Below are positions 2,690-64,000 of a DNA stretch of 64,000 bases, piece after piece. Every line of letters begins with the position of its first letter. Position 1 is the first letter of the stretch. Source of the stretch: an uncultured euryarchaeote (lineage in GTDB: Archaea; Thermoplasmatota; Poseidoniia; Poseidoniales; Poseidoniaceae); the NCBI GenBank assembly GCA_937899865.1, contig CALBRH010000025.1:44176-108175 (forward strand), read 5' to 3'. A program made the position numbers and the translations under genes. The notes beneath the pieces are model-generated. The model did no database searches, had not been told where the DNA came from, and worked only from the letters and a program-made list of their open reading frames with translations.

Positions 2690-5572
2690 TCACTTGGGCG
2701 GTGGTTTTAGATCAGGTAAAACCGGCACGAATTGTTTTGGTTGGTGCTTTTCCATCACTGTTAGGAACTCATCCAAACTGATTACTCCATCACCATTAGC
2801 ATCAAATGTATCCAGCATAGCATCGATATCTGAAACCTTTACAGAGTCTTTGAGCAATGTGTTGACAGCGGTTCGAATCTCTCTCCTTGAGACATAACCA
2901 TCGTTAGTTTGGTCAATAGCAGTGAACAACCTTACTGCAGAAAGTCCGGAGGATTTCATAGCGCTAGCAACCTTGTCCTTGATGTCGATTGAATCATCTT
3001 TACCATCAGAATCACTTGAAGATTCATTCACATCTTCATCATCCCAAATTTTGTCGATTACTGTTGTTTGAGAATTAAGAAGATCATCATCGTCACCTCG
3101 ACTGACAACATACAATCCAAATAGCAATGCAATCACAATAATTAGTAAAATTAGTTTCAATTGATTCTTTGTTGCTTCATCTGCTTCTGCTTCATCAATA
3201 AATTGGTCATCTGGTTGGTCAGCAAACATGTCATCGTCATCATCAACAGTATTGTTATCGGTTGGTCCAGGTAATGTAGTAGTGTCGCCACCATTGTTGG
3301 TATTGCCGCCATTGTTGTTATTGTTACCAGTATTTGTGTTGTCATCGGGAAGTTGAACATTGACATTTATCCTGTCACCATTTTCCATTTCAACAGTGTA
3401 ATAATTGTCATATAATTTTGTCAAATCAATGTGATAATTTGCATGAGTTGAACGATTGATTACATCGAAGTAGCGGTCATCTCCAGAAGTAAATATTGGG
3501 TCCAAAGTCAGGTTCTTCAAACGATTAACATTATCTTTGTAATCACCATCAAAAGTAGTATTCAACCAAGCATTGATTTCTTCATCGCTGTCGCCGTTGA
3601 ACTCGACCCAATTAGCCTTCATGTCATCAAACTCATGACGCATAGCCATGGCCAGACCTGCCTCGATTTCGGCAAAGGTTTGACTACCATCTACCTCGGT
3701 CAGTGATGTCACATCTACGGCTTTTTGGAATCCTGTACCATTGACATATTCCCAATCATCACCTTGCAATTGTTGCATGAGGTCAACATCACCAAATACG
3801 GCTTTACCTTGTACTACGGTTAGTGCTACATCAGCATCAATAGCTTCAATCAAGTTTCGATATGGGTCTTCATGGAAGGTATCTATGACAACAAGGTCAG
3901 CATATAGGTCAGCCTTGATTCGTCCAACAAAAGGAGTCCACCCTGTGGCATCAGCAGGATTACAAGTAACCATTTCTACCAATTCATAATTGCTAAAGTG
4001 GCCACCAAGATTGTTGGTGTTCCACATATCTGCAACCTTTAATTCATGCAGGTTATTTTTCGAACCACTTGGCCCCCAATCTGGTGAGATTGAGATGCTT
4101 ACACCTGCTTGGTCTGCCGCGACAACATCAGTTGTATCACCGTATAGTAATAGATTAGAAAGCGGAGACCACACAAGTTCTGAATTGACACTAGCCATTT
4201 TACTAAATTGTGAGGAGTCTAATGCTGTTCCATGAATGACAATAGTTTCATCCATTATCAAATTCTTACTCCACAATGCATCAAATTCGTCTTTGCTGGA
4301 TTGATCAACTCCTTCTGATAAGTGAACAAACCACGCGTTTAGTGTTCCTGCCTCACTTTGACTAATCAGGTGGCTACCTGTATAATCGTCATCAGCAGCA
4401 CCACATACAGCGCATGTAGAAATACCGTCTTGTCCGAAGTTGTATAACTCGACATTTCTCGACAGAATGCTATCCCATGCTTGGGTGCCTGAACTTGGTG
4501 AACCTTGCATGGCAGTCACTCCACCGGAGACTGCTTGTACCTCAGCGTACTTCATCTGTTCACTTGCCATATCCCAACGATAAGTCGACTGAATATTGGT
4601 CTTCATCCAAGTAATACTTGGTCCGTAATCCCAGTTGTTACCCCATTGGTATCTGTTAGTGTATCCGCCTTCCTCTGACTTTTGAGAGTCACTAAGATGC
4701 ACATCGAAATCCCAAAGAGGTATGTGATTGTAATGTACGTGATTGTGCAAATCAATCAATCCAGGATAAATTGTCCCTTCAGTTTCAACGATTGGCACAT
4801 CAGTAAAATCAACACCAGCAGGTGGATTGGCATTTGATGCCCATACCCCGGTAATCTTACCGTCACGAATCATCACATTTCCATCATTTATTACGTTATT
4901 TTCACCATCCATTGTGACAACTCTTCCTTTGAGAAGGAATGCTCTAGATGAGTCTGTGTTGGTCAACTTATAGCAATTAACAATGTTGTCAGGTACAGTA
5001 TACGGCTCTGAATAATCTGCAGCCCTACCGGGGGTCGGGTCGTCCTTGGTTAAACTGCCATCATCCGAAATGTAAGACCTGCCATAACTAGAGTCACTTG
5101 CTGGGAAAGACATAGAGTTGATTAGATTAGAATTGGTATCAGAAATACTGACTGTCTCGCCATCAAAATAACTCAGATCGAGGTCGGAATCAGCACGGAA
5201 TACTACCAATCTCTCATCAGCATCGAGCGTAGTATTGTATGGAAGTTGACAAGGCGGGCTACCACTGGTTGTTGAAAGGAGCCAACTTGAGACATCCTGT
5301 GGTGCATCACCGGAATTCCATATTTCGATAAATTGGTCACTATATTTACCGTAATCTCCGTCGCCATTCCAGTCAACTGCGCCGTAGATGTTAGAATTAG
5401 TTTCATTGGCTACAAGATTATTTGGACTAATGAAAAGTTCCGAAATAACCACATTTGCCGCACGACCATTTGCCTCTTTTGCATCGTCTAATTCTAGGCT
5501 ATTGACTGTTGAAGACCATGAAGAAAACATCAGCAGCAGCAACACGCTTGAGGCAACTAGTACTCGTCGCAT
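2690..5572 (-). CDS. Secreted, membrane-anchored amidohydrolase with an N-terminal lamin-tail domain and a C-terminal EF-hand pair
   Basis: Signal peptide MRRVLVASSVLLLLMF; lamin-tail-like VVISEL...QFIEIWNSG; metal motifs IDLHNH, HLSEG, IHG and ISPDW; TM helix LILLIIVIALLFGLYVV; EF loops DQTNDGYVSRRE and DANGDGVISLDE. Start moved from 5623 to the ATG at 5572. Confidence 0.85.
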   Translation of the reverse strand: MRRVLVASSVLLLLMFSSWSSTVNSLELDDAKEANGRAANVVISELFISPNNLVANETNSNIYGAVDWNGDGDYGKYSDQFIEIWNSGDAPQDVSSWLLSTTSGSPPCQLPYNTTLDADERLVVFRADSDLDLSYFDGETVSISDTNSNLINSMSFPASDSSYGRSYISDDGSLTKDDPTPGRAADYSEPYTVPDNIVNCYKLTNTDSSRAFLLKGRVVTMDGENNVINDGNVMIRDGKITGVWASNANPPAGVDFTDVPIVETEGTIYPGLIDLHNHVHYNHIPLWDFDVHLSDSQKSEEGGYTNRYQWGNNWDYGPSITWMKTNIQSTYRWDMASEQMKYAEVQAVSGGVTAMQGSPSSGTQAWDSILSRNVELYNFGQDGISTCAVCGAADDDYTGSHLISQSEAGTLNAWFVHLSEGVDQSSKDEFDALWSKNLIMDETIVIHGTALDSSQFSKMASVNSELVWSPLSNLLLYGDTTDVVAADQAGVSISISPDWGPSGSKNNLHELKVADMWNTNNLGGHFSNYELVEMVTCNPADATGWTPFVGRIKADLYADLVVIDTFHEDPYRNLIEAIDADVALTVVQGKAVFGDVDLMQQLQGDDWEYVNGTGFQKAVDVTSLTEVDGSQTFAEIEAGLAMAMRHEFDDMKANWVEFNGDSDEEINAWLNTTFDGDYKDNVNRLKNLTLDPIFTSGDDRYFDVINRSTHANYHIDLTKLYDNYYTVEMENGDRINVNVQLPDDNTNTGNNNNNGGNTNNGGDTTTLPGPTDNNTVDDDDDMFADQPDDQFIDEAEADEATKNQLKLILLIIVIALLFGLYVVSRGDDDDLLNSQTTVIDKIWDDEDVNESSSDSDGKDDSIDIKDKVASAMKSSGLSAVRLFTAIDQTNDGYVSRREIRTAVNTLLKDSVKVSDIDAMLDTFDANGDGVISLDEFLTVMEKHQPKQFVPVLPDLKPPPK

Positions 5573-52845: not shown

Positions 52846-54156
52846 GTGAAGTGCATGAGTGTAGTTGATGATGTAATTGATTCAATTAATGAACAGATTG
52901 ATGTTGCAAGTGATTTGCACCCTGGTATCAAATTTTTAATTTGTATAGTATTAACTGCAATTGGTTATTATCTTGTTAAGTACGCTGTTGTAAGGCCTTG
53001 GGGTCGAGTTGTAATGTCGACTGATACCGCATGGGATGACAAATTACACCGACCAGTGGCAAATCGCGCATATTTCTTTTTGTTTGTTGGTTCAGCCCAA
53101 TTATCGATATTGTGGGTTTCAGACCAAGCCTCATTCAATGATGGGCTATCTCCGTATTTCTCTGCGATTTATATCTTGACTGCAACTTCGATTGCAAGTG
53201 TATCAATCAAACACATTATTCCAATGGTAATGGACCGCTTCACAGAGAAGTCAAGTGTAACCGTATCTGGTAGTAATCCTCTGATCACATTCACCCTTAG
53301 ATTCGTAGTTTGGTTTGGCGGTATGTATCTGGCCTTGACTGAAATCGGAGTTGAATTATTTGGTGTTCTTGCATCTCTTGCTGTATTCTCGCTAATTATT
53401 GGTTTAGCTGTACAACAAACACTTGGTAACATCATCAACTCGTTCTTACTGGCAATAGACCGTCCGTTTGAAATTGGTGATAGAATCGAAGTTGAAGGGA
53501 CATGGGGGTCAGTAGTTGGCACAGGTATTCTATCAACTAAGGTTCTTGACCGAGATGAACGCTTAGTAGTTATTCCAAATAATACTCTAGTGCAATCAAC
53601 AATCATTAACCACGCTCGTGGTGGCGGTGATGGTGTTGCAAGGAGAATTTCGATTGTTGTTGATGTTGGCGTTGACTACCGTGAGAGTACAGAACACGTT
53701 AAACTAACTATGATCAAAATCGCTAGAGATTGTGAATATATTATGGATGAACCAAAGCCACAAGTTCTTCTCACTGAACTGGGTGATTTTGCTAAGGTTT
53801 TCCGTTTATTCGCTTGGGTCAATGATTACTCAGATGAACAACTTGCCAGAGATTGGTTGCTTAGAACTATCGATAGCAGATTTAGCGAAGAAAGCATCAA
53901 CATCCCATATCCAACATCTGTTGAGTTGACAGAAAGTGTATACACTCAAGTATCTACCAGGAAGCAAGCTGCAGCAACTAAGAAGATGGAGCAGGAAGAA
54001 CAGAAGCATCTTGAAGAGCGTGAAGAAGCGAAGGAAAAACTCGATGATCTCAACGAGCAACTCAAAGATGTCAATATGGACAAGAAGAAGAGAGCTGAAC
54101 TTGAAGAAGAGGCTCGACGTCTTGAAACAGTAATCAATATGTTTGATTCTGCTTGA
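52846..54156 (+). CDS. mscS: Small-conductance mechanosensitive channel with a charged coiled-coil tail
   Basis: IIGLAVQQTLGNII, RPFEIGDRIEV, LVVIPN, and INIPYP followed by an Glu/Lys-rich helix. Confidence 0.9.
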   Translation: MKCMSVVDDVIDSINEQIDVASDLHPGIKFLICIVLTAIGYYLVKYAVVRPWGRVVMSTDTAWDDKLHRPVANRAYFFLFVGSAQLSILWVSDQASFNDGLSPYFSAIYILTATSIASVSIKHIIPMVMDRFTEKSSVTVSGSNPLITFTLRFVVWFGGMYLALTEIGVELFGVLASLAVFSLIIGLAVQQTLGNIINSFLLAIDRPFEIGDRIEVEGTWGSVVGTGILSTKVLDRDERLVVIPNNTLVQSTIINHARGGGDGVARRISIVVDVGVDYRESTEHVKLTMIKIARDCEYIMDEPKPQVLLTELGDFAKVFRLFAWVNDYSDEQLARDWLLRTIDSRFSEESINIPYPTSVELTESVYTQVSTRKQAAATKKMEQEEQKHLEEREEAKEKLDDLNEQLKDVNMDKKKRAELEEEARRLETVINMFDSA

Positions 54157-54189: not shown

Positions 54190-54197
54190 CTATATAT
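54190..54197 (+). promoter_or_regulatory. TATA box of the giant surface protein gene; implies a leaderless transcript
   Basis: AAAGGGATA-CTATATAT lies about 26 nt upstream of ATG 54223, which is the canonical archaeal BRE/TATA spacing. Confidence 0.5.
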
Positions 54198-54222
54198 GTG
54201 CCTTATTGGCACATTTACACAC

Positions 54223-57200
54223 ATGAACGGTAGCGCAAGCCATGGAAAAACTGTAAAATCGGCGTTTTTAGTCATTCTAATGATTATAATGACTCAAGTC
54301 GGGTACTTGGACCTGATAAATAGTCCAAAAACCGGTAATGATTCATTGAGCGAAGAAACTTCAGTGTTTGAGACTGCTCAAGGAACCTCGATTATTTACG
54401 GCAATAATACTCAATGGGCGCCATCTGGTTCATTAGAAACATATGGTTTCTCAGGTAATGCCGATATAATTGCGACAAGTGACGATGTAATTTTGCTCAA
54501 AGGGCAAAATGGTAAAGACAGTAACATTCGTTGTATAATTGCCTACAATTATGTCAACAAAACCTCTTGGCAGCCAAATGTTGTAGGTACATCGCAATGC
54601 CCGGGTGCACATTCTTTTTGGAAGTTCATTGGCATCATCGACGGAGTGACATTGGTGCGGTATGACTCAGGGAGTTCGAATAGTCAAAACCATGCGCTTT
54701 TTGGCTACAACCCGAATAACGATACTTTCTATCCAATAGCAAGCCTTCCAAACACACTAGATACAGTAGGTGGTACTGCGATTATTGGTAGAAATGTCTA
54801 CATGGGTACACTACAATCAGATGTGACTATTTTTAATTATGATAATCAGACCATTTGGGAACTGAATAATATTGGTTCATCAAGTTGCAACTCTTTAGAG
54901 TACTATGATACTGGCGCTGTCGGCGATAAATTTTTTGGAAGGTGTAGCAACCGTTTAGCTATTTTTGATCCAGCCACACAATCATTATACACTCCAAGCA
55001 GTATGTCTTCTGTGTATGTTAATAATACGCATACAACAACTAGAACTGCGGTAATAGGCAACCAATTATTATTCCAAGGATATGATAGTGTCAACGGTAA
55101 GGAGTTATGGGTCTATGATGCCAATAATGATTCTGCATGGATGGCTGCAGATATTGCAGTAGGTTCGGATTCAGCATGGTCAACGTATGGGCAGTTTAAC
55201 CCGCTGCGTTCAGGAACAAAAGTTCTGTTTGAGGCTACCGACCAATTCGATGACAAAGACCTTTGGTGGTATGATAGCACCAATGCCTCAGTTTGGCGTG
55301 CAACAAATTTCTCAGATCCCAGCATAATATTTAACGGATGGAGCAGCAAGAATTATGGCGAATTGGCCAATGGTGTTATTGCCATAGGTCACGGAAATGC
55401 CGATGGAACTAATACGAATTATTACTCGAACTACATTTCATTCTACAACCCAAGTAATGGTACAGTATGGCAAGAGCCCACTTTGTATGAGTTAACTGAG
55501 CAAACAGGTTATGCGCCAAACACTAATGGCAATATCAAATTACGCGCAGTATATGGTAACACTATTATTGGAACTGCAGAAATCAATACAGGATCACCAG
55601 TAGGATATTACTACAAATTATTTGCTTTTGACCTCACCAATCAAACCCGACAGATCTCAGCCAACCTAGGCAATGCTCAATACTCGCATTATGATATTAT
55701 CAGTACCAACATAGTGACGTTTGGCGACCACATCTTGTATGGCTTGGCCTGCGGTAATAATATTGCAAATTCATGCCCTGCTGTTGGCGGGGGTCGGCAA
55801 GCCGCAGTCGCTTGGTCGCCCGGTGCAATAGCAGTTAATGATGCATGGAACATTTCGGCTGGAGACCGTCTTGACGGCCCAATTTCAGGTGGCGATGGGC
55901 GTTTCTACAACTCAGGGGCTGGCGTGCAAAATCTAACCGCCAGTTCAGAAGGTGCCGAACTGATGGTTGGCGATCTCATGGATGATATCACCTTCCAATA
56001 CAACGCCAGTGCAGCAAGCGGTTCCGGTAGTGGCTCAGGCAGCGTTTCAAGCGGAGTCTCTTCGAGTTCCTCGTCCTTTGCTTATGCGAACAATAAGTTG
56101 GGTGCTGGATTCCACACCTGCGCCATCCTTGACAACGGCGACCTGAAGTGCTGGGGATGGGACGTCGAAGGGCAGTTGGGCGATGGTGGTTTTTTCGTAG
56201 ACCTCAACTCACCTCCAAATACCGCGATTGACCTCGGCTCGGGCCGAACGGCCGTTGCGGTGTCAAATGGTTGGCGGCACACCTGCGCCATCCTCGACAA
56301 CGGCGATCTGAAATGTTGGGGACGGGACTATCACGGACAGTTGGGCGATGGTGGAAGCAACACGAACCTCAACGTACCTTCAACCACGGCGATTGACCTC
56401 GGCACGGGCCGAACGGCCGTTGCGGTGTCTGGTGGATATCAACACACCTGCGCCATTCTTGACAACGGCGACCTGAAGTGTTGGGGAGGGGACCAATACG
56501 GACAGTTGGGCGATGGCGGACCAGATTGGTCCAACAGTAACCCAACCGACACCAACGCACCTTCAACCACGGCGATTGACCTCGGCACGGGACGAACGGC
56601 CGTTGCGGTATCTACTGGATTCCACCACACCTGCGCCATCCTTGACAACGGTGAGTCGAAGTGTTGGGGCAATAATGGAGATAAACAGTTGGGCGTCGGT
56701 GCGTACACCACACACCTCACTACACCTCCAACCTCAGCGATTGACCTCGGCACGGGCCGCACGGCTGTTGCGATCTCAGCTGAATCTGTCAACACCTGCG
56801 CCATTCTCGACAACGGTGAGGCGAGGTGCTGGGGGTACAATGCCTACGGACAGTTGGGTAATGGAAACAACAACGCTCATGATTTACCTGTTTCAGTTTT
56901 CGGCAACGCTTGGGATTCCTCAACCGGACTGAGCAGCGGCTCGGGCGGCGGCTCAAGCGGCGGCATGACCAACGTCACCGGTGCAACCTCTTGCGTTGCA
57001 ACACCTTCGTTGCCTAGTGGTTTGAACATCGACAGCAATACGTGTACAATTAGCGGCACACCAACGGTTGAATCGGTCAATCAAACCTACACGGTCACCG
57101 CCGTCATCAGTGGAACGACCTTCCAAACAACAGTTTGGTTGTCCATCATCCCATTTGGCACAATTACCTCAACAGTTGATGGTGCTGAACTGCAACTTGG

Positions 57201-60200
57201 TGAAGCGATGACGCCGATCACGCTAAACTACACTTCACAAGCACCACCAGGTTCGACGATAAATGGCAACGGTTCAGTTTGGGATGTCACAAGTTACACA
57301 GCAAATGTTGGTTTACCAAGCACTATAAATCCAGGCCTAAATTTCCATCTCGTCGTTGGTGATGTCATTTACTTTGATGGTCAATGTTCTTCAGCCTCAT
57401 GGTCTCAGTGCAACGGCAGAGAGTTATGGGCTTATGATACCTCTAACCAAACAGGTTGGTTGGTTAAAGATATAGGGCCATCGTATTATTCAGGAAATCC
57501 AGGAATGTACTGGAATGAAGTTATTCTAATGGGAGATACGCTTTATTTCCCTGCAGTAAGTACAGGTTCTTGGCAGCAGAGTAAATACGAATTACACGCC
57601 TTTGATATCTCAAATCAAACACTTTGGCAAGTAACCAATTCTTCAGACCCCAATCCTATTTGGTCGCAATCCCATGCTCCTAATCGAGAGGCCTTACCAA
57701 AAGTGATTGGTGACACAATATTCTTCGAATATGACGATGGTTTGACAGGAGATGAACTCTGGGCGCACAATACCTTAAACGGAACAACATGGCAAGTTAT
57801 TGACTTAAATATTGGACAAAATTGGAATGACAGTAATCCAGGAGAAAAATTAACCAAGGTTGTTGATGGAGTACTTTACTTCGACGCTTATACTTCATCA
57901 TCAAACGGTTATTTTCTGTGGGCACATAACCCTTCAAACGGTTCGACTTGGCAAACTTCAAGCAATGTTGCCGTTTCATGTACGCCTGCATCCTCTGTTC
58001 GCTGTGAGAGTACTGTTGTCGATGGAATAATCTATTTCCAAGGCATTGAATCCACTTTCAATTCCAACACGAATGGTAAGGAACTTTGGGCTTATAGTAC
58101 ATTGAACGGTTCTGCTTGGTTAGCTGCTGATATTAATAACGTAGGATCAAATAGCAACAGTGAACCTGGTAAACATTTCATGATTGCCATTGGTGATGAA
58201 ATCTACTTTGATGCAGATGGTTGGTGGGATGACGGAGATGGCTTTTTGCGAAATGTCGGCCATGAAGTTTGGGGTTATAGTATTTCAAACGGTTCATATT
58301 GGTTAGCGTACAATTCACGTGTTGAATCGACCACAACCCCTCTGGGTAGCAATCCAGGATATAGGTTGAGTTATGCAATTGGTGACAAATTATACTTTAG
58401 CGCAGCCGACCCACAACCATATGGACCTGGATTATTTGTTTATGATACTTCTACACATGAGGGATGGAAAGTTGATGGAATAAGGGACGTAAAAGGACAT
58501 TTCAACACTCAAAGCGTAGTTATGGGTGACAATCTAATCATGGATGCTATGCCCGCCCATGGCTATGGTTGCAATGCTCAAAATGAATTAATGATTCACT
58601 CTCAATCAAATAATACAACATGGAATTTACACAATTGTGCAGGAAACATCCTTGGAATATCAACTGGTGACCACTTTATGGTAAACGTCGGAGACAAACT
58701 CTACTTCAATCAAGATGATGTTTTGATGGGCTATTATCCTCAGGAACTGACAATGAATACACCGCCACCAACGACTTGGGAAACTGAACCTCCACTACCT
58801 GCTGGTATGAGTATCTCAGGCGGTACGATTAGCGGCACACCTTCGGTTTATGCCAATAATCAAACCTACACAATTTACGCTAATCAGAGCGGTCAAACAA
58901 CAACTCATGACTTATACTTCAGCGTTGACAATGCTTATCCACACACTGTAGTGGAAGACCAACCGATTGATGCAATCGGCTTCCATCCTGCATTCTGGGA
59001 TGGTACAACCACATGGAGCATTTCACCAAGTTTGCCAAACACTCTATTGCAAGATAGTGCAACTGGTGAGATTACCGGTACGGTTGACAGTCCAATGAGT
59101 GATACATTTACCGTTACTGCTACTCATAGTAGTGGAGCATCTGAAACATTTACTTTCAGTATTGAGAGTTTACTCGATACTGATAGTGATGGCTTACCGG
59201 ATGACTTGCCACCAACTTACAACCCAGCCAATCCTCCTACTTCTGGATTGATTGCTGATGATGATGATGATGGCGATGGCCTACTTGACAGCGTGGAGAC
59301 TGATACTGGCCTCTACATTAATGGACAGGATACTGGAACTGACCCGCTTGACCCTGACACTGATGATGACGGAATTTGTGATGGTCCAAATGCAGTGCCA
59401 CCAGTTTGTATTGCTGGTCCTGACCCGTCACCTAATGGTAATACACCACCACCAACTTTGGTCGGAGTCAATAATACCGACATTGGCACTCTATCACCTT
59501 ACTTGGTAGTGCCTGGCGGAACTTTCGAGATTTCTCCAGACTTGCCAGACAGTTTGTCAATCGATCCAAATACTGGTGAAATTACTGGAACTCCAACTCA
59601 AACCTTGACTAACACGACATTCACAGTTTGGTGTAACCATACTGACGGAACTTCGGTATCTTGGGATTTCACAATTGAGATTCTTGAGGACAGTGATGGC
59701 GATGGTATGCCAAATGAGCTGCCAGATGATTACGACCCAACTAATCCGGACTCGCCTGGTTTGATTGAAGATTTGGATGATGATAACGACGGTAATTCAG
59801 ATGTTGATGAAGAAGCCGGCGGCACCGACCCAACCAACCCAGATACTGATGGCGATGGTATGTGTGATGGTCCAGTTGCCATTGAGCCAGACTGTGTTGC
59901 TGGTCCAGATGCTTTCCCACTTGACCCGTCAGCAGATACTGATACTGACGGCGATGGTGACCCAGATACTTTGACTCCACCATCCACCAGCATACCTCCA
60001 CTTGTTGAGGACTTGGACGATGATGGCGACGGTATTGAGGACGTCAATGAAACCAATACTGGAATCTACAATGGTGATACTGATACAGGTACCGACCCGC
60101 TTGACCCAGATACCGATAACGACGGTATTTGTGATGGTCCAGTTGATGTCCTACCAATCTGTGTAGCTGGTCCTGACGAAGACTTTGGCGTTGCAGTTGA

Positions 60201-63200
60201 TGGAGCAGTCTATTTGGTAAATAATACTCAAATGGTTATGTTAAATCCAAAATACACTATTGAAAACGGTGTCTATGAAATATCTCCTGACTTGCCTGAA
60301 GGAGTCATTATAAATCCACAGACTGGTGTTATTTCAGGTACTCCAACAGAAGTAATGGATAATACTACATACACTGTTTATGGAAATAACAGCCAAGGTG
60401 GCGTATTCTTTACCTTTGAACTTCAAGTTCTTGAGGATTCAGACTTAGATGGAATGCCAAATGAACTACCAAATGATTATCCAACCAATGATGATAACTA
60501 CAACTTAATTGAAGATCTCGATGATGATAATGACGGAGCATCTGATGTAGCTGAGACAGATACTGGAATCTATGTTGATAACAATGATATGGGAACAGAC
60601 CCACTTGACCCAGATACTGATGATGATGGTATATGTGATGGTCCAAATTCAGTATTGCCAATTTGTATTGCTGGTCCTGACTCCAATCCATTTGGTACAG
60701 GTCCACTTGGCCCAACCGTACTTGTCAACAATACTGAGATGATTCCACTACCTCCTGCTAATGCAGTTCCAGGTGCTATTTGGGCGGTATCTCCTGATTT
60801 ACCTGCTGGTTTGACACTCAATGTGACAACCGGAGTAATTAGTGGTACTCCAACAGAAGCAATGGAGAATACTACTTTCACATTGTGGGCGAATACTTCT
60901 GAGCCAAGAAGTGTTGAATCTACATTCTGGCTTGAAGTCTTGGAAGATACTGATGGCGATGGTATGCCTGATGAATTGCCAGACGACTATCCTGATACTG
61001 GACTACCGCCATTTGACTTAATCGAAGATTTGGATGACGATGCTGATGGTATGCCTGATGTTGATGAAGCAACCAATGGTACTGATTCACTCAATCCAGA
61101 TACTGACGGTGATGGCTTCTGTGATGGTCCTAGTGCAGTTGATGGCGTATGTTATGCTGGTCCAGACTCACACCCACTCGACCCAGATATGCCGGTTAAC
61201 ACCGATGGAGACGCTTTCCCAGATGACGATCCTGATGGTGATGGTGGCTTGATTGCTGATGATGACGATGATAATGATGGCTACTTGGACACTGAAGAAG
61301 TTGATTGTTTGTCTGACCCACTCGACGTAAATGATGTTCCGAGTGACATGGATGGTGACGGAATTTGTGATGCACTTGATGATGACATGGATGGCGATGG
61401 TGTGCTCAACGATGAAGAAACCAATAGTGGTAATTTCGGTAATGACCTTGACTCACTAACTGATCCAGCAAACCCAGATACCGACGGTGATGGAGTTTGT
61501 GATGGTCCTGCTACACCTGATGCAAGTATTTGCGTAGCTGGACCCGATGCATTCCCAGATGACCCTGCAGCCTCTCTTGATACCGATGGCGATGGTATGC
61601 CTGACGAGTTGAACGGTGAATCTACTACAGGTTTGATTGAAGATGAGGATGATGACAATGACACTATTGATGATGTTACAGAACTGATGTGTGGCACTGA
61701 TCCGAAAGTAGTCAACGTTTTGCCAGATATTGATGGCGATGGAATTTGTGATGCAATGGATGATATTCTTGACTTGCCGTTTGAGCTGTCTTATGAAAGT
61801 CAACATCTAGACCTATTTGTAAATAAGACAATGGTCGCATTTATGCCAAATGTTACCGGACTTGGTGATGTAGCAAGTTGGGAATTAGTTGGCGATTTAC
61901 CAGAAGGCTTGACCTTTGGAATTAGTGATGCGAGAAGTGGTGGACTTGACGGAGGAATTCGTGGAACACCAGCAAATGCAACAGATGAGCCAGTTAATCT
62001 AACGATTTGGGCGAACAATTCCAATTACCAGCGTTCATTTGCCTTGATGGTGACAGTCTTTAACGACACAGATAACGATTCCTTACCTGATTCACTACCA
62101 GAAAATTACACTGGTAATCTAACAGCAGATGATGATGATGATAACGATGGATTCTTTGACCAAGATGAGATAAACTGTGGCTCAGACCCACTTGATACTT
62201 CATCAGACCCAACCAATACTGAAGGTGAAATCTGTGAAAAGTTATCAGATGGTGGTAAGGATGATGGTGAAGATGGATTAGCCTGGTGGTGTTTCCCACT
62301 ATGTTTCCTACTGCTATTGTTACTACTTGTGCCACTACTACTATTCCGTGACAGAGTAATTGGCGTAATTGATGATGCTGAGCCAGAAAATACTACTTCA
62401 AAACCTAAGTTTGCTGAAGGTGCTGGAAATAAAGACAATCCATTTGTGCTCAAACCAGCTAAGACAGTAAAGCCTGGCGATACTGTTGTCAGTAAAGAAG
62501 TCATTACAATTACCAATATCACACCTGGTTTGAAAGTCAAGTCTGTTGATTACTTTGACCGTGAAAATGGACGCAAGTTCACCATGCAAGACCAATCCGG
62601 AAGTGATGAAGGCGTAAGGATGATTGAAGCTGATGAAGAAGGCGAGATGAAGTTTAGATTGATCTTTGATGACAGTTTCGATGCAACTCTTGCTGGTGGA
62701 GAATTCCAAGGTGCAATCAAGGTTGGTCGACGCTCGGTATACTTGATGTGGGATGTTAAGGTCAAGCCAGACCCAGACTACGTCAAAGAGCAGAAGAAAC
62801 TTGAAGCAGAGCGAAAGAAGGCTGAGAAGGAAGCTGAAAAGCAAGCCGAAAAGGAAGCCAAGGAAGCAGAAGCGAAGGCCAAGAAGGAAGCCGCAGCAGC
62901 CGAAAAGGAAGCCAAGAAAGAGGCTGAGAAGAAGGCTAAGGAAGAGGCAGAAGAAGCCGCAGCAGCCAAGAAGGCAGAGGAAGCAGCATTAGCAGCAGTA
63001 GCCGCTGCCGAAGCGGAAGAGAAAGCTCAGAAGAAAGCGGAAAAGGAAGCTAAGGCCGCTGAAGCCAAGGCCAAGAAGGAAGCCGCTGCAGCCGAGAAGA
63101 AAGCCAAGAAAGAGGCAGCTGAGGCTGAGAAGAAAGCCAAGGAAGAGGCAGAAGCAGCAGCAGCCGCTGAAGCAGAAGCGAAGGCCAAGAAGGAAGCTGA

Positions 63201-64000
63201 AGAGGCTGAAAAGAAGGCTAAGGCTGAAGCAGAGAAGGCCAAGAAGGCAGCAGCCAAGAAACCTGCAACCACCAAGGAAGCCAAGAAGCAAGAGGAAATC
63301 AAGCGTGTTAAATCTCGTGCGAAGAGTATTGACTTCAAGGTGCTTGGAACTGCATCTTCGACTAAGTTGAAGAGTGAAGTAAAGAAGGGTGCTAAGACTT
63401 TGGAAGTTGCTGATGCTAAAGAATTCGCTGATTCTGGAAGTGCCGCAATTACCGATGATAAGGGTTCAACAATGATTACTTGGACTGGTAAAGATGGTAA
63501 TACTCTAACAGGTGTTGGTGGAGTTACCAGAGTCTTTGGAAAAGCATCTGTAGTTATGGTAAGAGATGATTTGCAAGTTATCAAGGGAATCGGTCCGTTT
63601 ATTGAAGAGAAATTGAATGCTCTTGGAATCACAACCTACCGACAAATTGCTAACATGACTGCTAAACTTGAAACTCAAGTCAACGAGGCAATCGAGTTCT
63701 TCCCAGGCCGTGTCAAGCGTGACCAGTGGGTTGCTCAAGCCAAGATTTTGCTTGGTGAAGATGCTAAACTTGACGAGAAAGCGCTGAAAGAGGCTGAAGA
63801 GTTAGAGAGAATCGCTCAGAAGGCTGAAACAATTGACTTCGATACACTTGGTGTTGCGACTTTCGATGAGAAAGATGACCTCCAAACTATCAAGGGAATA
63901 GGTCCTTTCATCGCTGATAAGTTGTATGCTCTTGGAATCTACACCTTTGCTCAAGTTGGCAACATGACCTCGAAGATCGAAGAAGAAGTCAACAAAGCGA
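54223..64000 (+). CDS. Giant single-pass surface protein (at least 3259 aa, 3'-truncated): propellers, Ig-like (He_PIG) domains, Ca-binding repeats, TM helix, K/A/E helix and HhH domains
   Basis: Hand translation of frame 1 shows no stop from ATG 54223 to the window end. Signal MNGSASHGKTVKSAFLVILMIIMTQVGY; TM AWWCFPLCFLLLLLLLVPLLLF at 62281-62346. It is absent from the ORF track because no stop codon is present. Confidence 0.92.
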   Translation, partial: MNGSASHGKTVKSAFLVILMIIMTQVGYLDLINSPKTGNDSLSEETSVFETAQGTSIIYGNNTQWAPSGSLETYGFSGNADIIATSDDVILLKGQNGKDSNIRCIIAYNYVNKTSWQPNVVGTSQCPGAHSFWKFIGIIDGVTLVRYDSGSSNSQNHALFGYNPNNDTFYPIASLPNTLDTVGGTAIIGRNVYMGTLQSDVTIFNYDNQTIWELNNIGSSSCNSLEYYDTGAVGDKFFGRCSNRLAIFDPATQSLYTPSSMSSVYVNNTHTTTRTAVIGNQLLFQGYDSVNGKELWVYDANNDSAWMAADIAVGSDSAWSTYGQFNPLRSGTKVLFEATDQFDDKDLWWYDSTNASVWRATNFSDPSIIFNGWSSKNYGELANGVIAIGHGNADGTNTNYYSNYISFYNPSNGTVWQEPTLYELTEQTGYAPNTNGNIKLRAVYGNTIIGTAEINTGSPVGYYYKLFAFDLTNQTRQISANLGNAQYSHYDIISTNIVTFGDHILYGLACGNNIANSCPAVGGGRQAAVAWSPGAIAVNDAWNISAGDRLDGPISGGDGRFYNSGAGVQNLTASSEGAELMVGDLMDDITFQYNASAASGSGSGSGSVSSGVSSSSSSFAYANNKLGAGFHTCAILDNGDLKCWGWDVEGQLGDGGFFVDLNSPPNTAIDLGSGRTAVAVSNGWRHTCAILDNGDLKCWGRDYHGQLGDGGSNTNLNVPSTTAIDLGTGRTAVAVSGGYQHTCAILDNGDLKCWGGDQYGQLGDGGPDWSNSNPTDTNAPSTTAIDLGTGRTAVAVSTGFHHTCAILDNGESKCWGNNGDKQLGVGAYTTHLTTPPTSAIDLGTGRTAVAISAESVNTCAILDNGEARCWGYNAYGQLGNGNNNAHDLPVSVFGNAWDSSTGLSSGSGGGSSGGMTNVTGATSCVATPSLPSGLNIDSNTCTISGTPTVESVNQTYTVTAVISGTTFQTTVWLSIIPFGTITSTVDGAELQLGEAMTPITLNYTSQAPPGSTINGNGSVWDVTSYTANVGLPSTINPGLNFHLVVGDVIYFDGQCSSASWSQCNGRELWAYDTSNQTGWLVKDIGPSYYSGNPGMYWNEVILMGDTLYFPAVSTGSWQQSKYELHAFDISNQTLWQVTNSSDPNPIWSQSHAPNREALPKVIGDTIFFEYDDGLTGDELWAHNTLNGTTWQVIDLNIGQNWNDSNPGEKLTKVVDGVLYFDAYTSSSNGYFLWAHNPSNGSTWQTSSNVAVSCTPASSVRCESTVVDGIIYFQGIESTFNSNTNGKELWAYSTLNGSAWLAADINNVGSNSNSEPGKHFMIAIGDEIYFDADGWWDDGDGFLRNVGHEVWGYSISNGSYWLAYNSRVESTTTPLGSNPGYRLSYAIGDKLYFSAADPQPYGPGLFVYDTSTHEGWKVDGIRDVKGHFNTQSVVMGDNLIMDAMPAHGYGCNAQNELMIHSQSNNTTWNLHNCAGNILGISTGDHFMVNVGDKLYFNQDDVLMGYYPQELTMNTPPPTTWETEPPLPAGMSISGGTISGTPSVYANNQTYTIYANQSGQTTTHDLYFSVDNAYPHTVVEDQPIDAIGFHPAFWDGTTTWSISPSLPNTLLQDSATGEITGTVDSPMSDTFTVTATHSSGASETFTFSIESLLDTDSDGLPDDLPPTYNPANPPTSGLIADDDDDGDGLLDSVETDTGLYINGQDTGTDPLDPDTDDDGICDGPNAVPPVCIAGPDPSPNGNTPPPTLVGVNNTDIGTLSPYLVVPGGTFEISPDLPDSLSIDPNTGEITGTPTQTLTNTTFTVWCNHTDGTSVSWDFTIEILEDSDGDGMPNELPDDYDPTNPDSPGLIEDLDDDNDGNSDVDEEAGGTDPTNPDTDGDGMCDGPVAIEPDCVAGPDAFPLDPSADTDTDGDGDPDTLTPPSTSIPPLVEDLDDDGDGIEDVNETNTGIYNGDTDTGTDPLDPDTDNDGICDGPVDVLPICVAGPDEDFGVAVDGAVYLVNNTQMVMLNPKYTIENGVYEISPDLPEGVIINPQTGVISGTPTEVMDNTTYTVYGNNSQGGVFFTFELQVLEDSDLDGMPNELPNDYPTNDDNYNLIEDLDDDNDGASDVAETDTGIYVDNNDMGTDPLDPDTDDDGICDGPNSVLPICIAGPDSNPFGTGPLGPTVLVNNTEMIPLPPANAVPGAIWAVSPDLPAGLTLNVTTGVISGTPTEAMENTTFTLWANTSEPRSVESTFWLEVLEDTDGDGMPDELPDDYPDTGLPPFDLIEDLDDDADGMPDVDEATNGTDSLNPDTDGDGFCDGPSAVDGVCYAGPDSHPLDPDMPVNTDGDAFPDDDPDGDGGLIADDDDDNDGYLDTEEVDCLSDPLDVNDVPSDMDGDGICDALDDDMDGDGVLNDEETNSGNFGNDLDSLTDPANPDTDGDGVCDGPATPDASICVAGPDAFPDDPAASLDTDGDGMPDELNGESTTGLIEDEDDDNDTIDDVTELMCGTDPKVVNVLPDIDGDGICDAMDDILDLPFELSYESQHLDLFVNKTMVAFMPNVTGLGDVASWELVGDLPEGLTFGISDARSGGLDGGIRGTPANATDEPVNLTIWANNSNYQRSFALMVTVFNDTDNDSLPDSLPENYTGNLTADDDDDNDGFFDQDEINCGSDPLDTSSDPTNTEGEICEKLSDGGKDDGEDGLAWWCFPLCFLLLLLLLVPLLLFRDRVIGVIDDAEPENTTSKPKFAEGAGNKDNPFVLKPAKTVKPGDTVVSKEVITITNITPGLKVKSVDYFDRENGRKFTMQDQSGSDEGVRMIEADEEGEMKFRLIFDDSFDATLAGGEFQGAIKVGRRSVYLMWDVKVKPDPDYVKEQKKLEAERKKAEKEAEKQAEKEAKEAEAKAKKEAAAAEKEAKKEAEKKAKEEAEEAAAAKKAEEAALAAVAAAEAEEKAQKKAEKEAKAAEAKAKKEAAAAEKKAKKEAAEAEKKAKEEAEAAAAAEAEAKAKKEAEEAEKKAKAEAEKAKKAAAKKPATTKEAKKQEEIKRVKSRAKSIDFKVLGTASSTKLKSEVKKGAKTLEVADAKEFADSGSAAITDDKGSTMITWTGKDGNTLTGVGGVTRVFGKASVVMVRDDLQVIKGIGPFIEEKLNALGITTYRQIANMTAKLETQVNEAIEFFPGRVKRDQWVAQAKILLGEDAKLDEKALKEAEELERIAQKAETIDFDTLGVATFDEKDDLQTIKGIGPFIADKLYALGIYTFAQVGNMTSKIEEEVNKA
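56101..56900 (+). repeat. Five tandem RCC1-like repeats inside the giant CDS
   Basis: Unit HTCAILDNGxxKCWGxxxxGQLG..AIDLGTGRTAVAVS. The near-identical DNA GCGATTGACCTCGGC starts at 56224, 56389, 56572 and 56737. Confidence 0.92.
59173..62230 (+). repeat. Thrombospondin type 3-like DxDxDG Ca-binding repeats alternating with Ig-like domains
   Basis: Recurring DTDGDGMPDELP, EDLDDDNDG, GTDPLDPDTDDDGICDGP..C.AGPD and SPDLPxGL..TGxISGTPT. Confidence 0.88.
62790..63270 (+). repeat. Lys/Ala/Glu low-complexity helical stalk (TolA-like or single alpha-helix)
   Basis: About 160 codons that are almost all K, A or E (for example KAEKEAEKQAEKEAKEAEAKAKKEAAAAEK). Confidence 0.88.
63562..64000 (+). repeat. 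Tandem helix-hairpin-helix domains in the cytoplasmic tail
   Basis: DDLQVIKGIGPFIEEKLNALGITTYRQIA (from 63562) and KDDLQTIKGIGPFIADKLYALGIYTFAQVG (from 63871). More copies may follow beyond the window. Confidence 0.85.

Follow-up and report, generated by a model that had tools for sequence, protein, structure and literature searches.

A Giant Surface Protein of a Candidatus Poseidoniales Archaeon with a Conserved Cytoplasmic Helix-Hairpin-Helix Tail and Its Possible Mooring to the Nucleoid

The stretch of DNA analysed here, a window of 64,000 nucleotides on contig CALBRH010000025.1 of an uncultured Poseidoniaceae archaeon, ends within a gene that encodes a roughly 3,300-residue cell-surface protein of a Candidatus (Ca.) Poseidoniales (Marine Group II) archaeon. 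The gene is real, and its product consists of a very long ectodomain, a single transmembrane (TM) helix, and a predicted cytoplasmic tail that comprises an immunoglobulin (Ig)-like β sandwich, a spacer rich in Ala, Glu, and Lys, and two helix-hairpin-helix (HhH) units. Judged by profile matches and alignments, the HhH unit is the COG3743/H3TH module that is also present in NuoE, S2, L21, PhaH, and protein-O. We consider it about 45% probable that this giant adhesin or fibre is moored to the nucleoid by its tail, in which the HhH units would bind DNA non-specifically, a reading that draws on sequence comparison and on the analogy with PhaH.

Reading Frame and Integrity of the Gene

According to the list of open reading frames (ORFs) and the translation, the open frame extends over 3268 codons without a stop (54196-63999, forward strand) and runs off the window, the end of which is also the end of contig C25 (G000:C25:108175) in a genome of 2.01 Mb that comprises 65 contigs and is 91% complete. 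Residue numbers used here count from position 54196, with position 54223 corresponding to Met10. The N terminus read from Met10, MNGSASHGKTVKSAFLV..., aligns with the N termini of the orthologs (MQRSVSHGRTVKS...), and therefore the minimum length of 3259 residues that a first-pass annotation, made from the letters of the window, had assigned to this protein is correct, the frame being open to the contig end. Two near-orthologs, P0004 (3256 residues, encoded on a 2.1-Mb contig) and P0006 (3400 residues), stop 30 residues past the last codon of the window after the sequence ...AIEFFPGRVKRDEWAKQARELHKGKK. Therefore, about 30 codons are missing here, and the tail contains exactly two HhH units, where at least two domains of the type DDL..IKGIGP had been anticipated.

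Contigs from other samples bridge the TM junction. DNA contigs from two other studies match positions 62094-62420 with zero differences, and contigs from metatranscriptome libraries cover positions 61009-62858 (95% identical) and 62183-62858 (98%), leading from the stalk across the TM helix and into the spacer. Although the contig ends within the gene, a paralogous tail sits on a contig of only 3.3 kb, and the gene is rich in repeats (TRF), these bridging contigs and the same continuous architecture, found in many assemblies among the 120 listed homologs and in part on contigs of 1.5-2.1 Mb, leave a negligible chance that an adhesin gene and a gene for a cytoplasmic HhH protein were misjoined at repeats near the TM helix, the misassembly that the first-pass annotation had named as a danger to its own proposal.

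Membrane Topology

A Kyte-Doolittle scan of the whole frame identifies two hydrophobic segments only, residues 22-43 and 2697-2720, and the chain is strongly asymmetric with respect to the second of them. The 2653 residues between the two segments contain 43 Cys, compared to none in the 548 residues that follow the TM helix; there are 52 N-x-S/T sequons in the ectodomain, where 35 would be expected, and 4 after the TM helix; and the net charge is -345 in the ectodomain versus approximately zero in the tail. Together with the signal anchor and the one TM helix, this asymmetry argues, at the level of sequence, for an ectodomain that lies outside the cell and a tail that lies inside. It fits an ectodomain that is exported, disulfide-bonded, and probably glycosylated, as well as a cytoplasmic tail. 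The trans-envelope layout proposed in the first-pass annotation, with one TM helix marked by WWC..C, is thus recovered, and the helix carries the motif WWCFPLC.

The two Cys residues of this motif are located at the outer end of the TM helix (62284-62310, residues 2697-2705) and are kept in P0004 and P0006, and a paralog described below has a single Cys at the corresponding place (RFLCLPL). Both lipid modification and a disulfide are possibilities for the role of this pair.

Structure of the Cytoplasmic Tail

The tail was analysed in an alignment of 27 tails and in two AlphaFold2 (AF2) models, one of the tail of the paralog encoded on contig C41 of the same genome (predicted local distance difference test, pLDDT, 86) and the other of the HhH region of an ortholog (P0004:2995-3256, pLDDT 85). 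The β domain expected after the TM helix appears in the former model as an Ig-like sandwich. In the family, this sandwich comprises ~130 residues and begins 2-10 residues past the TM helix, and no Pfam family matches it. The top Foldseek match is the PapD-like/ASH domain of HYDIN (2e6j), with E of 3.2e-6, a template modelling (TM) score of 0.53 by target, and 15% identity; the ASH domains of OCRL and CEP192 come next, mixed with pilins and Ig domains of glycosidases. The model therefore suggests a generic Ig-like sandwich, possibly of the ASH type.

The spacer that follows is of variable length. Its composition over the family is 26% Ala, 22% Glu, and 18% Lys, and the distance from the β domain to the first HhH unit ranges from 34 to 390 residues, with a median of 234. 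Short equivalents of the spacer are modelled by AF2 as helices, and the composition of the 176-residue stretch suggests the same conformation for it. Probably, then, the spacer is a stiff single helix, which would reach ~26 nm here and 5-58 nm over the family. The Lys/Ala/Glu stretch had been recognised correctly in the first-pass annotation, although its length had been put at about 160 residues rather than 176.

In the model of the ortholog, a basic lead-in helix is followed by a β-barrel insert of ~66 residues (63355-63561 in the window) that precedes HhH unit 1 and is present in some members of the family only. In VIA-align this insert superimposes on small barrels from phage proteins (tail tube, baseplate, and tailspike) with Z of 9-11 and a root-mean-square deviation (rmsd) of 1.8-2.1 over 72-74 residues, the best match being to phage tail proteins (Z 10.9, rmsd 1.8 over 74 residues). 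A lower Z of ~7 is obtained with translation GTPases (domain II) and with ATPases (N-terminal barrel), and all these matches are silent on function.

The HhH units themselves are identified by several profiles. Residues 3030-3268 match the Pfam families Cdd1 (PF11731, 33.4 bits versus a cut-off of 25.5) and HHH_5 (PF14520, 33.1 versus 27), and NCBIfam models place the unit at the C termini of alphaproteobacterial NuoE (E 1.9e-19), of S2 and L21, as well as of the phasin PhaH, the model of which (NF045508) is matched at positions 164-231 of 234 with E of 4.4e-10. This region is also the limit of the resemblance, since the giant protein as a whole scores 40.1 bits against a cut-off of 250 and is not itself a PhaH. 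The core motif reads DDLQ.IKGIGPFIEEKLNALGI...AIEFFPGRVKRD.W..QAK. Ten residues, G188, G190, K196, G201, Q207, R229, R232, D233, W235, and Q238, are invariant in the 27 tails, and the same residues align with the two Protein Data Bank (PDB) sequences that hold the module, 9wqv chain a and 8yy9 chain O (E values of 5e-13 and 7e-13 for this pair). JGI lists the module as COG3743, under the name 'flap endonuclease-1-like 5' DNA nuclease'. A Foldseek comparison of the HhH1-insert-HhH2 model with the PDB returned nothing at E <= 0.001.

An exhaustive search for the module found 8140 cluster representatives at E <= 0.001. Among its bacterial relatives a second design recurs, in which an N-terminal TM helix leads to a coiled coil and then to 2-25 tandem HhH units. 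In these proteins charge is absent before the TM helix and Lys/Arg residues follow it, and the orientation would therefore be N-out, C-in. One protein from Verrucomicrobiota has 25 matched HhH stretches (24 as counted with a hidden Markov model, HMM). Three proteins, P0123, P0124, and P0126, with lengths of 2,280-3,115 residues, consist almost wholly of 18-25 tandem HhH copies; one of them is from a Verrucomicrobiota metagenome-assembled genome, and P0123 starts with a TM helix. Arrays of this size recall topoisomerase V.

Distribution of the Tail

A word-indexed search for homologs among proteins of 1.8-5.7 thousand residues gave 130 matches, 120 of which were listed. The named ones belong to Ca. 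Poseidoniales, Poseidoniaceae, Thalassarchaeaceae, or Marine Group III. All 120 listed proteins have one β domain right after the last TM helix, a linker, and 1-3 C-terminal HhH units that end 0-4 residues from the C terminus, truncated entries aside. The first-pass annotation had predicted that a survey of related genomes would show a conserved tail joined to variable ectodomains, and had weighed the opposite outcome, a tail rarely linked to such ectodomains; the same tail in 120 of 120 listed giant homologs agrees with the former.

The β domain was found in 34 of 81 genomes of the order, in 1-4 copies that are often clustered, as in genomes with three copies within 32 kb (G003) or four within 55 kb (G054). 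In a profile search, 18 of 35 genomes that belong to the two main families had the β domain, compared to none of 165 genomes searched elsewhere in the phylum. In the genome studied here, an HMM search of all six-frame ORFs (91% completeness, as above) located the HhH and β domains only in the gene of contig C25 and in a fragment on contig C41. The latter, a 3.3-kb contig, carries a second giant gene with the same tail (L004:628-2442, reverse strand), the 5' end of which is cut by the contig end. Its product has a β domain 51-57% identical to that of the gene in the window, only a short linker rich in Lys, and one HhH unit, and ends with ...AKELAKKKK. This gene may be the neighbour that lies past the contig end of the window.

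Members of the family are common in databases, where they appear as hypothetical or 'putative Ig domain-containing' proteins. Its building blocks are known, whereas literature searches found no description of the cytoplasmic cassette or of its link to the PhaH/NuoE module, in agreement with the earlier remark that no characterised system has this architecture.

Ectodomain

Outside the membrane, the first-pass annotation had read three β-propeller regions, several Ig-like domains, and many disulfide-bracketed calcium-binding repeats. The last two correspond to six stretches of He_PIG (PF05345, 131.5 bits versus a cut-off of 24), 23 acidic motifs of the calcium type D.D.DG, and six Cys-bracketed CDGP...C.AGPD loops (motif scan). 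TSP3_bac (PF18884) scores 20.4 bits here, below its cut-off of 25, and many homologs carry PF18884. The propellers were confirmed in part. The RCC1-like one is well supported by Pfam (residues 638-901; RCC1_2 127.6 bits versus a cut-off of 22 in five stretches, RCC1 75 versus 21.7), with WD40_RLD just under its cut-off (140.2 versus 150 bits). The other two regions are probable propellers on the basis of their repeat motifs: the ELWxxDGT repeat model of NCBIfam (TIGR04534) scores 64.9 bits versus a cut-off of 65, in three stretches of which the best is residues 289-327, and 13 blade-like motifs, six in the distal tip and seven in the second region, are spaced by ~55 residues. A protein-cluster search with residues 1000-1640 returned He_PIG clusters only (0.85) and is uninformative on the propeller question. 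The RCC1-like propeller is encoded by a 165-bp tandem repeat (56113-56858, 4.2 copies, 74% matches by TRF), which lies where the G+C content of the window is highest (0.506 versus ~0.42 elsewhere).

Comparison with orthologs reveals a decrease in identity with the distance from the membrane. Identity is 94% in the aligned HhH part of the tail, 82-86% in the stalk, 57-72% in the RCC1-like propeller, and 37-60% in the middle region, and the N-terminal tip has no match at all, the orthologs carrying other domains in its place. This gradient is that of an adhesin whose business end varies while its anchor is kept. Coordinates of all features are given in Table 1.

Table 1. Position of the giant surface-protein gene, its upstream neighbour, and the predicted segments of its product; residues are numbered from position 54196.
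Feature	Residues	Positions	Strand	Basis and remarks
Upstream neighbour	436-residue ORF	52846-54156	+	40 nt upstream; position of MscS-type channel gene by synteny
Giant surface-protein gene		54223-63999	+	3' end cut by contig end, ~30 codons missing; likely start Met10
N-terminal signal/anchor segment	22-43	54259-54324	+	Hydropathy; basic HGKTVKS before it; kept in orthologs
Distal tip	44-560	54325-55875	+	ELWxxDGT-like blade motifs; probable propeller; not conserved in orthologs
RCC1-like β propeller	638-901	56107-56898	+	Pfam PF25390, PF13540, PF00415
Second ELW-type repeat region	~1000-1480	57193-58635	+	Motif scan, seven blade-like motifs
Membrane-proximal stalk	1641-2696	59116-62283	+	He_PIG alternating with TSP3-like motifs and CDGP...C.AGPD loops
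Single TM helix, WWCFPLCFLLLLLLLVPLLLF, then RDR	2697-2720	62284-62355	+	Hydropathy; bridged by contigs of other samples
Juxtamembrane Ig-like β sandwich	2727-2860	62374-62775	+	AF2 model of paralog, strands 9-132, pLDDT ~90
Ala/Glu/Lys spacer, 176 residues	2861-3036	62776-63303	+	Sequence; imperfect 33- and 81-bp repeats (TRF)
Basic lead-in helix (RVKSRAKSIDF..LG) and β-barrel insert		63304-63558	+	AF2 model of P0004:2995-3256
HhH unit 1, COG3743/H3TH type	3122-3190	63559-63765	+	Pfam Cdd1, HHH_5; NCBIfam C termini of NuoE, S2, L21, PhaH
Helical connector and second lead-in	3191-3224	63766-63867	+	AF2 model, helix 163-181
HhH unit 2	3225-3268	63868-63999	+	Cut by contig end; orthologs continue ...AIEFFPGRVKRDEWAKQARELHKGKK

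Possible Function of the Tail

In the arrangement that we propose, the protein would be a giant, calcium-binding, and probably glycosylated surface fibre or adhesin, the stalk of which, conserved and built of Ig and TSP3-like units, would carry a variable propeller tip. One TM helix would hold the stalk in the membrane, with the Ig-like β sandwich lying directly beneath it, and a spacer of variable length, rich in Ala, Glu, and Lys and probably forming a stiff helix, would carry the two HhH units into the cytoplasm. Because they are homologous to the HhH domain of PhaH, these units would most likely bind DNA without sequence preference, fastening the fibre to the nucleoid. Such mooring could fix and space the fibres, divide them among daughter cells, or, conversely, keep the chromosome attached to the envelope.

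This tether is supported by the tail being the most conserved part of the protein (94% identity versus 37-86% for the ectodomain), by the matches to DNA-binding HhH families of Pfam and the homology with PhaH, with more than one unit present, as well as by the recurrence of a membrane anchor, a long spacer or coiled coil, and HhH units in the bacterial relatives. According to passages of a review (PMC13052382), the HhH domain of PhaH is reported to bind DNA non-specifically and polyhydroxybutyrate (PHB) granules are tied to the nucleoid, and the loss of PhaH disorganises the granules along it (PMC13052382, citing Salinas et al. 2023, Mol Microbiol 120:307). Among the targets that the first-pass annotation had proposed for the tail, DNA thus gains a precedent, and nothing that was found points directly to ribosomes or another large complex. 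PhaH is the only studied member of the module, and DNA binding is the sole functional statement that was found for it.

Several points weigh against the tether. The HhH cores are slightly acidic (mean net charge -3.3, from -8 to +1), and over its full length the tail is close to neutral; the bacterial HhH homologs look similarly acidic in a hand count on the alignment. The match of the HhH fold to solved DNA-binding HhH structures is weak (Z 5.8 to NusA and PolQ) in a VIA-align comparison that was dominated by the β-barrel insert. The module is also found in NuoE, S2, L21, and protein-O of the reaction centre-light-harvesting 1 (RC-LH1) complex, where a nucleoid tether is not obvious, and the function of the C-terminal domain of protein-O has been called obscure by the authors of its structure (PMC12079452). 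The activity of PhaH comes second-hand, through passages of two reviews (PMC13052382, PMC12678847). Outside the cell, the adhesion role is suggested by the types of domains in the ectodomain, and the contigs from RNA libraries establish the presence of the joined form in such libraries, which is no proof of transcription.

It is unlikely, in our estimate, that the tail instead moors the fibre to a protein structure, with the β sandwich or the HhH units serving as protein-protein modules. In one form of this idea, these modules would bind each other or a sub-membrane scaffold, and the resulting cortical lattice would keep the fibres in place in the wall-less envelope. The best fold matches of the β sandwich are to cytoplasmic interaction Ig domains (the ASH domains of HYDIN, OCRL, and CEP192), and yet these are matches to generic Ig sandwiches at TM scores of 0.5. 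The constant position of the sandwich, always 2-10 residues past the TM helix, the acidic HhH cores, and the presence of the module on subunits of large complexes (NuoE, S2, L21, protein-O) would suit such a scaffold as well. However, no partner is known or predicted, PhaH, the sole studied HhH relative, is reported to bind DNA in the part of the literature cited above, and a spacer that ranges from 34 to 390 residues suits a reach into the bulk cytoplasm better than a fixed lattice.

HhH motifs recognise phosphate backbones via main-chain amides, and the ligands of the units might for that reason be phosphate head groups in the inner membrane leaflet, or else RNA or ribosomes, and not DNA. 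In that case, the tail would either run along the membrane or gather translating ribosomes under the fibre. Fusion of the module to S2 and L21 in Alphaproteobacteria, as well as its recurrence on membrane-anchored proteins, would be in line with this. A lipid-binding HhH is not known to us, though, a long and stiff spacer would be needless for reaching the adjacent membrane, and we regard such a role as improbable. The HhH domain of PhaH, moreover, acts on DNA according to the review passages (PMC13052382).

Very improbable is a signalling receptor of the Notch or ToxR kind, in which binding or pulling of the ectodomain would lead to intramembrane cleavage and the HhH tail would then act on the chromosome. 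The protein does combine a single membrane pass with a huge exterior of ligand-binding type and an interior of DNA-binding type, and a gene for a mechanosensitive channel stands directly upstream in the syntenic ortholog locus. Against this, HhH domains are not sequence-specific, and a Pfam scan of the tail at E up to 1 found no regulator domain of the helix-turn-helix (HTH), winged HTH, or ribbon-helix-helix (RHH) type apart from a 13-bit trace of RHH_8; a membrane-bound regulator of the ToxR/CadC type, for which a sequence-specific DNA-binding Pfam domain would be looked for, was rejected on the same ground. Paralogs with different ectodomains share the tail, as would a generic anchor rather than the transmitter of a specific signal, and neither a protease site nor a partner protease was identified.

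Returning to the tether to DNA, we can tentatively suggest, with the odds somewhat against it, that a dedicated cassette couples giant fibres through the membrane to the chromosome, which by its sequence features would constitute a prokaryotic link from the outside to the nucleoid without a described counterpart. The nucleoid could then serve as an internal skeleton that spaces, anchors, and partitions the fibres, or the envelope could hold and segregate the chromosome.

Comparison with Known Systems

The closest parallel is PhaH of Caulobacter crescentus (NF045508), in which a COG3743/H3TH HhH domain is also placed at the C terminus and the other end of the protein is fixed to a large body. 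The proposed logic, non-specific DNA binding with the nucleoid used as a scaffold, is likewise the same. In contrast, PhaH is small, soluble, and bacterial and attaches to PHB granules, whereas the protein described here carries an extracellular fibre of 2,650 residues across the membrane of an archaeon, with an Ig-like domain and a long spacer added to its tail and the HhH unit present twice.

NuoE (PRK12373), S2, L21, and protein-O of Dinoroseobacter shibae RC-LH1 (8yy9 chain O) share with the archaeal tail the hairpin DDL..IKG(I/V)GP and the ending F.GR..RD.W..QA, but these are small bacterial proteins that are subunits of energy or translation machines. Among them, protein-O resembles the archaeal protein further in that it has a membrane anchor, from which a flexible linker leads to the module; in the cryo-EM map of RC-LH1 its TM hairpin alone is resolved, and the module is not (PMC12079452).

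Thrombospondin-type and other adhesion proteins were described in Ca. Poseidoniales by Rinke et al. 2019 (PMC6461757). They belong to the same organisms, have the same kind of TSP3-like blocks in their ectodomains, and were taken as evidence of cell adhesion; in the passages of that paper on adhesion and surface proteins they are secreted or surface glycoproteins, with no TM-linked cytoplasmic tail mentioned there. The integrin-talin and LINC (SUN-KASH) systems offer a functional analogy only, in that a single-pass surface protein, by a cytoplasmic part that may be short or long, links the exterior to a large structure inside the cell; they are not homologous, and they bind the cytoskeleton or the lamina, not DNA directly.

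ComEA is a membrane-anchored protein with a C-terminal HhH domain that binds DNA without sequence preference. Its HhH domain is located outside the cytoplasmic membrane and captures incoming DNA, whereas that of the archaeal protein would be inside by its topology signals, and no sequence match of the archaeal tail to the ComEA families was seen. An extracellular HhH of the ComEA kind was accordingly rejected for the archaeal protein, the tail lying opposite the ectodomain rich in Cys and sequons.

Genomic Neighborhood

The order of genes upstream of the giant gene, namely PolX, H+-pyrophosphatase, pirin, HTH_10, and MscS, is the same as at the locus of P0004. In this ortholog locus, L006, the gene directly before the giant one carries PF00924 and PF21082, and the pairing of MscS with the giant protein is kept. 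Downstream of the ortholog at that locus (L006:19829-29771) there is a He_PIG protein of 650 residues, followed by a giant of 6117 residues. In complete relatives, three or four genes with the tail are packed into 32-55 kb, and the region looks like an island of genes for giant surface proteins.

Conclusions

The uncultured Ca. Poseidoniales rank with the most abundant archaea in surface ocean waters. Their largest surface proteins share a conserved intracellular cassette of 550-600 residues, the β domain of which was found in this order only, and this cassette is a testable handle on how a wall-less archaeon holds fibres of 2,000-6,000 residues in its membrane. Should the HhH units fail to bind DNA, the cassette would still point to a cytoplasmic anchoring system that has not yet been described. 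If they do bind it, as the HhH domain of PhaH is reported to, this would be the first surface adhesin known to us to be tied to the nucleoid, and a function would be suggested for the widespread but 'obscure' COG3743 module on NuoE, S2, L21, and protein-O.

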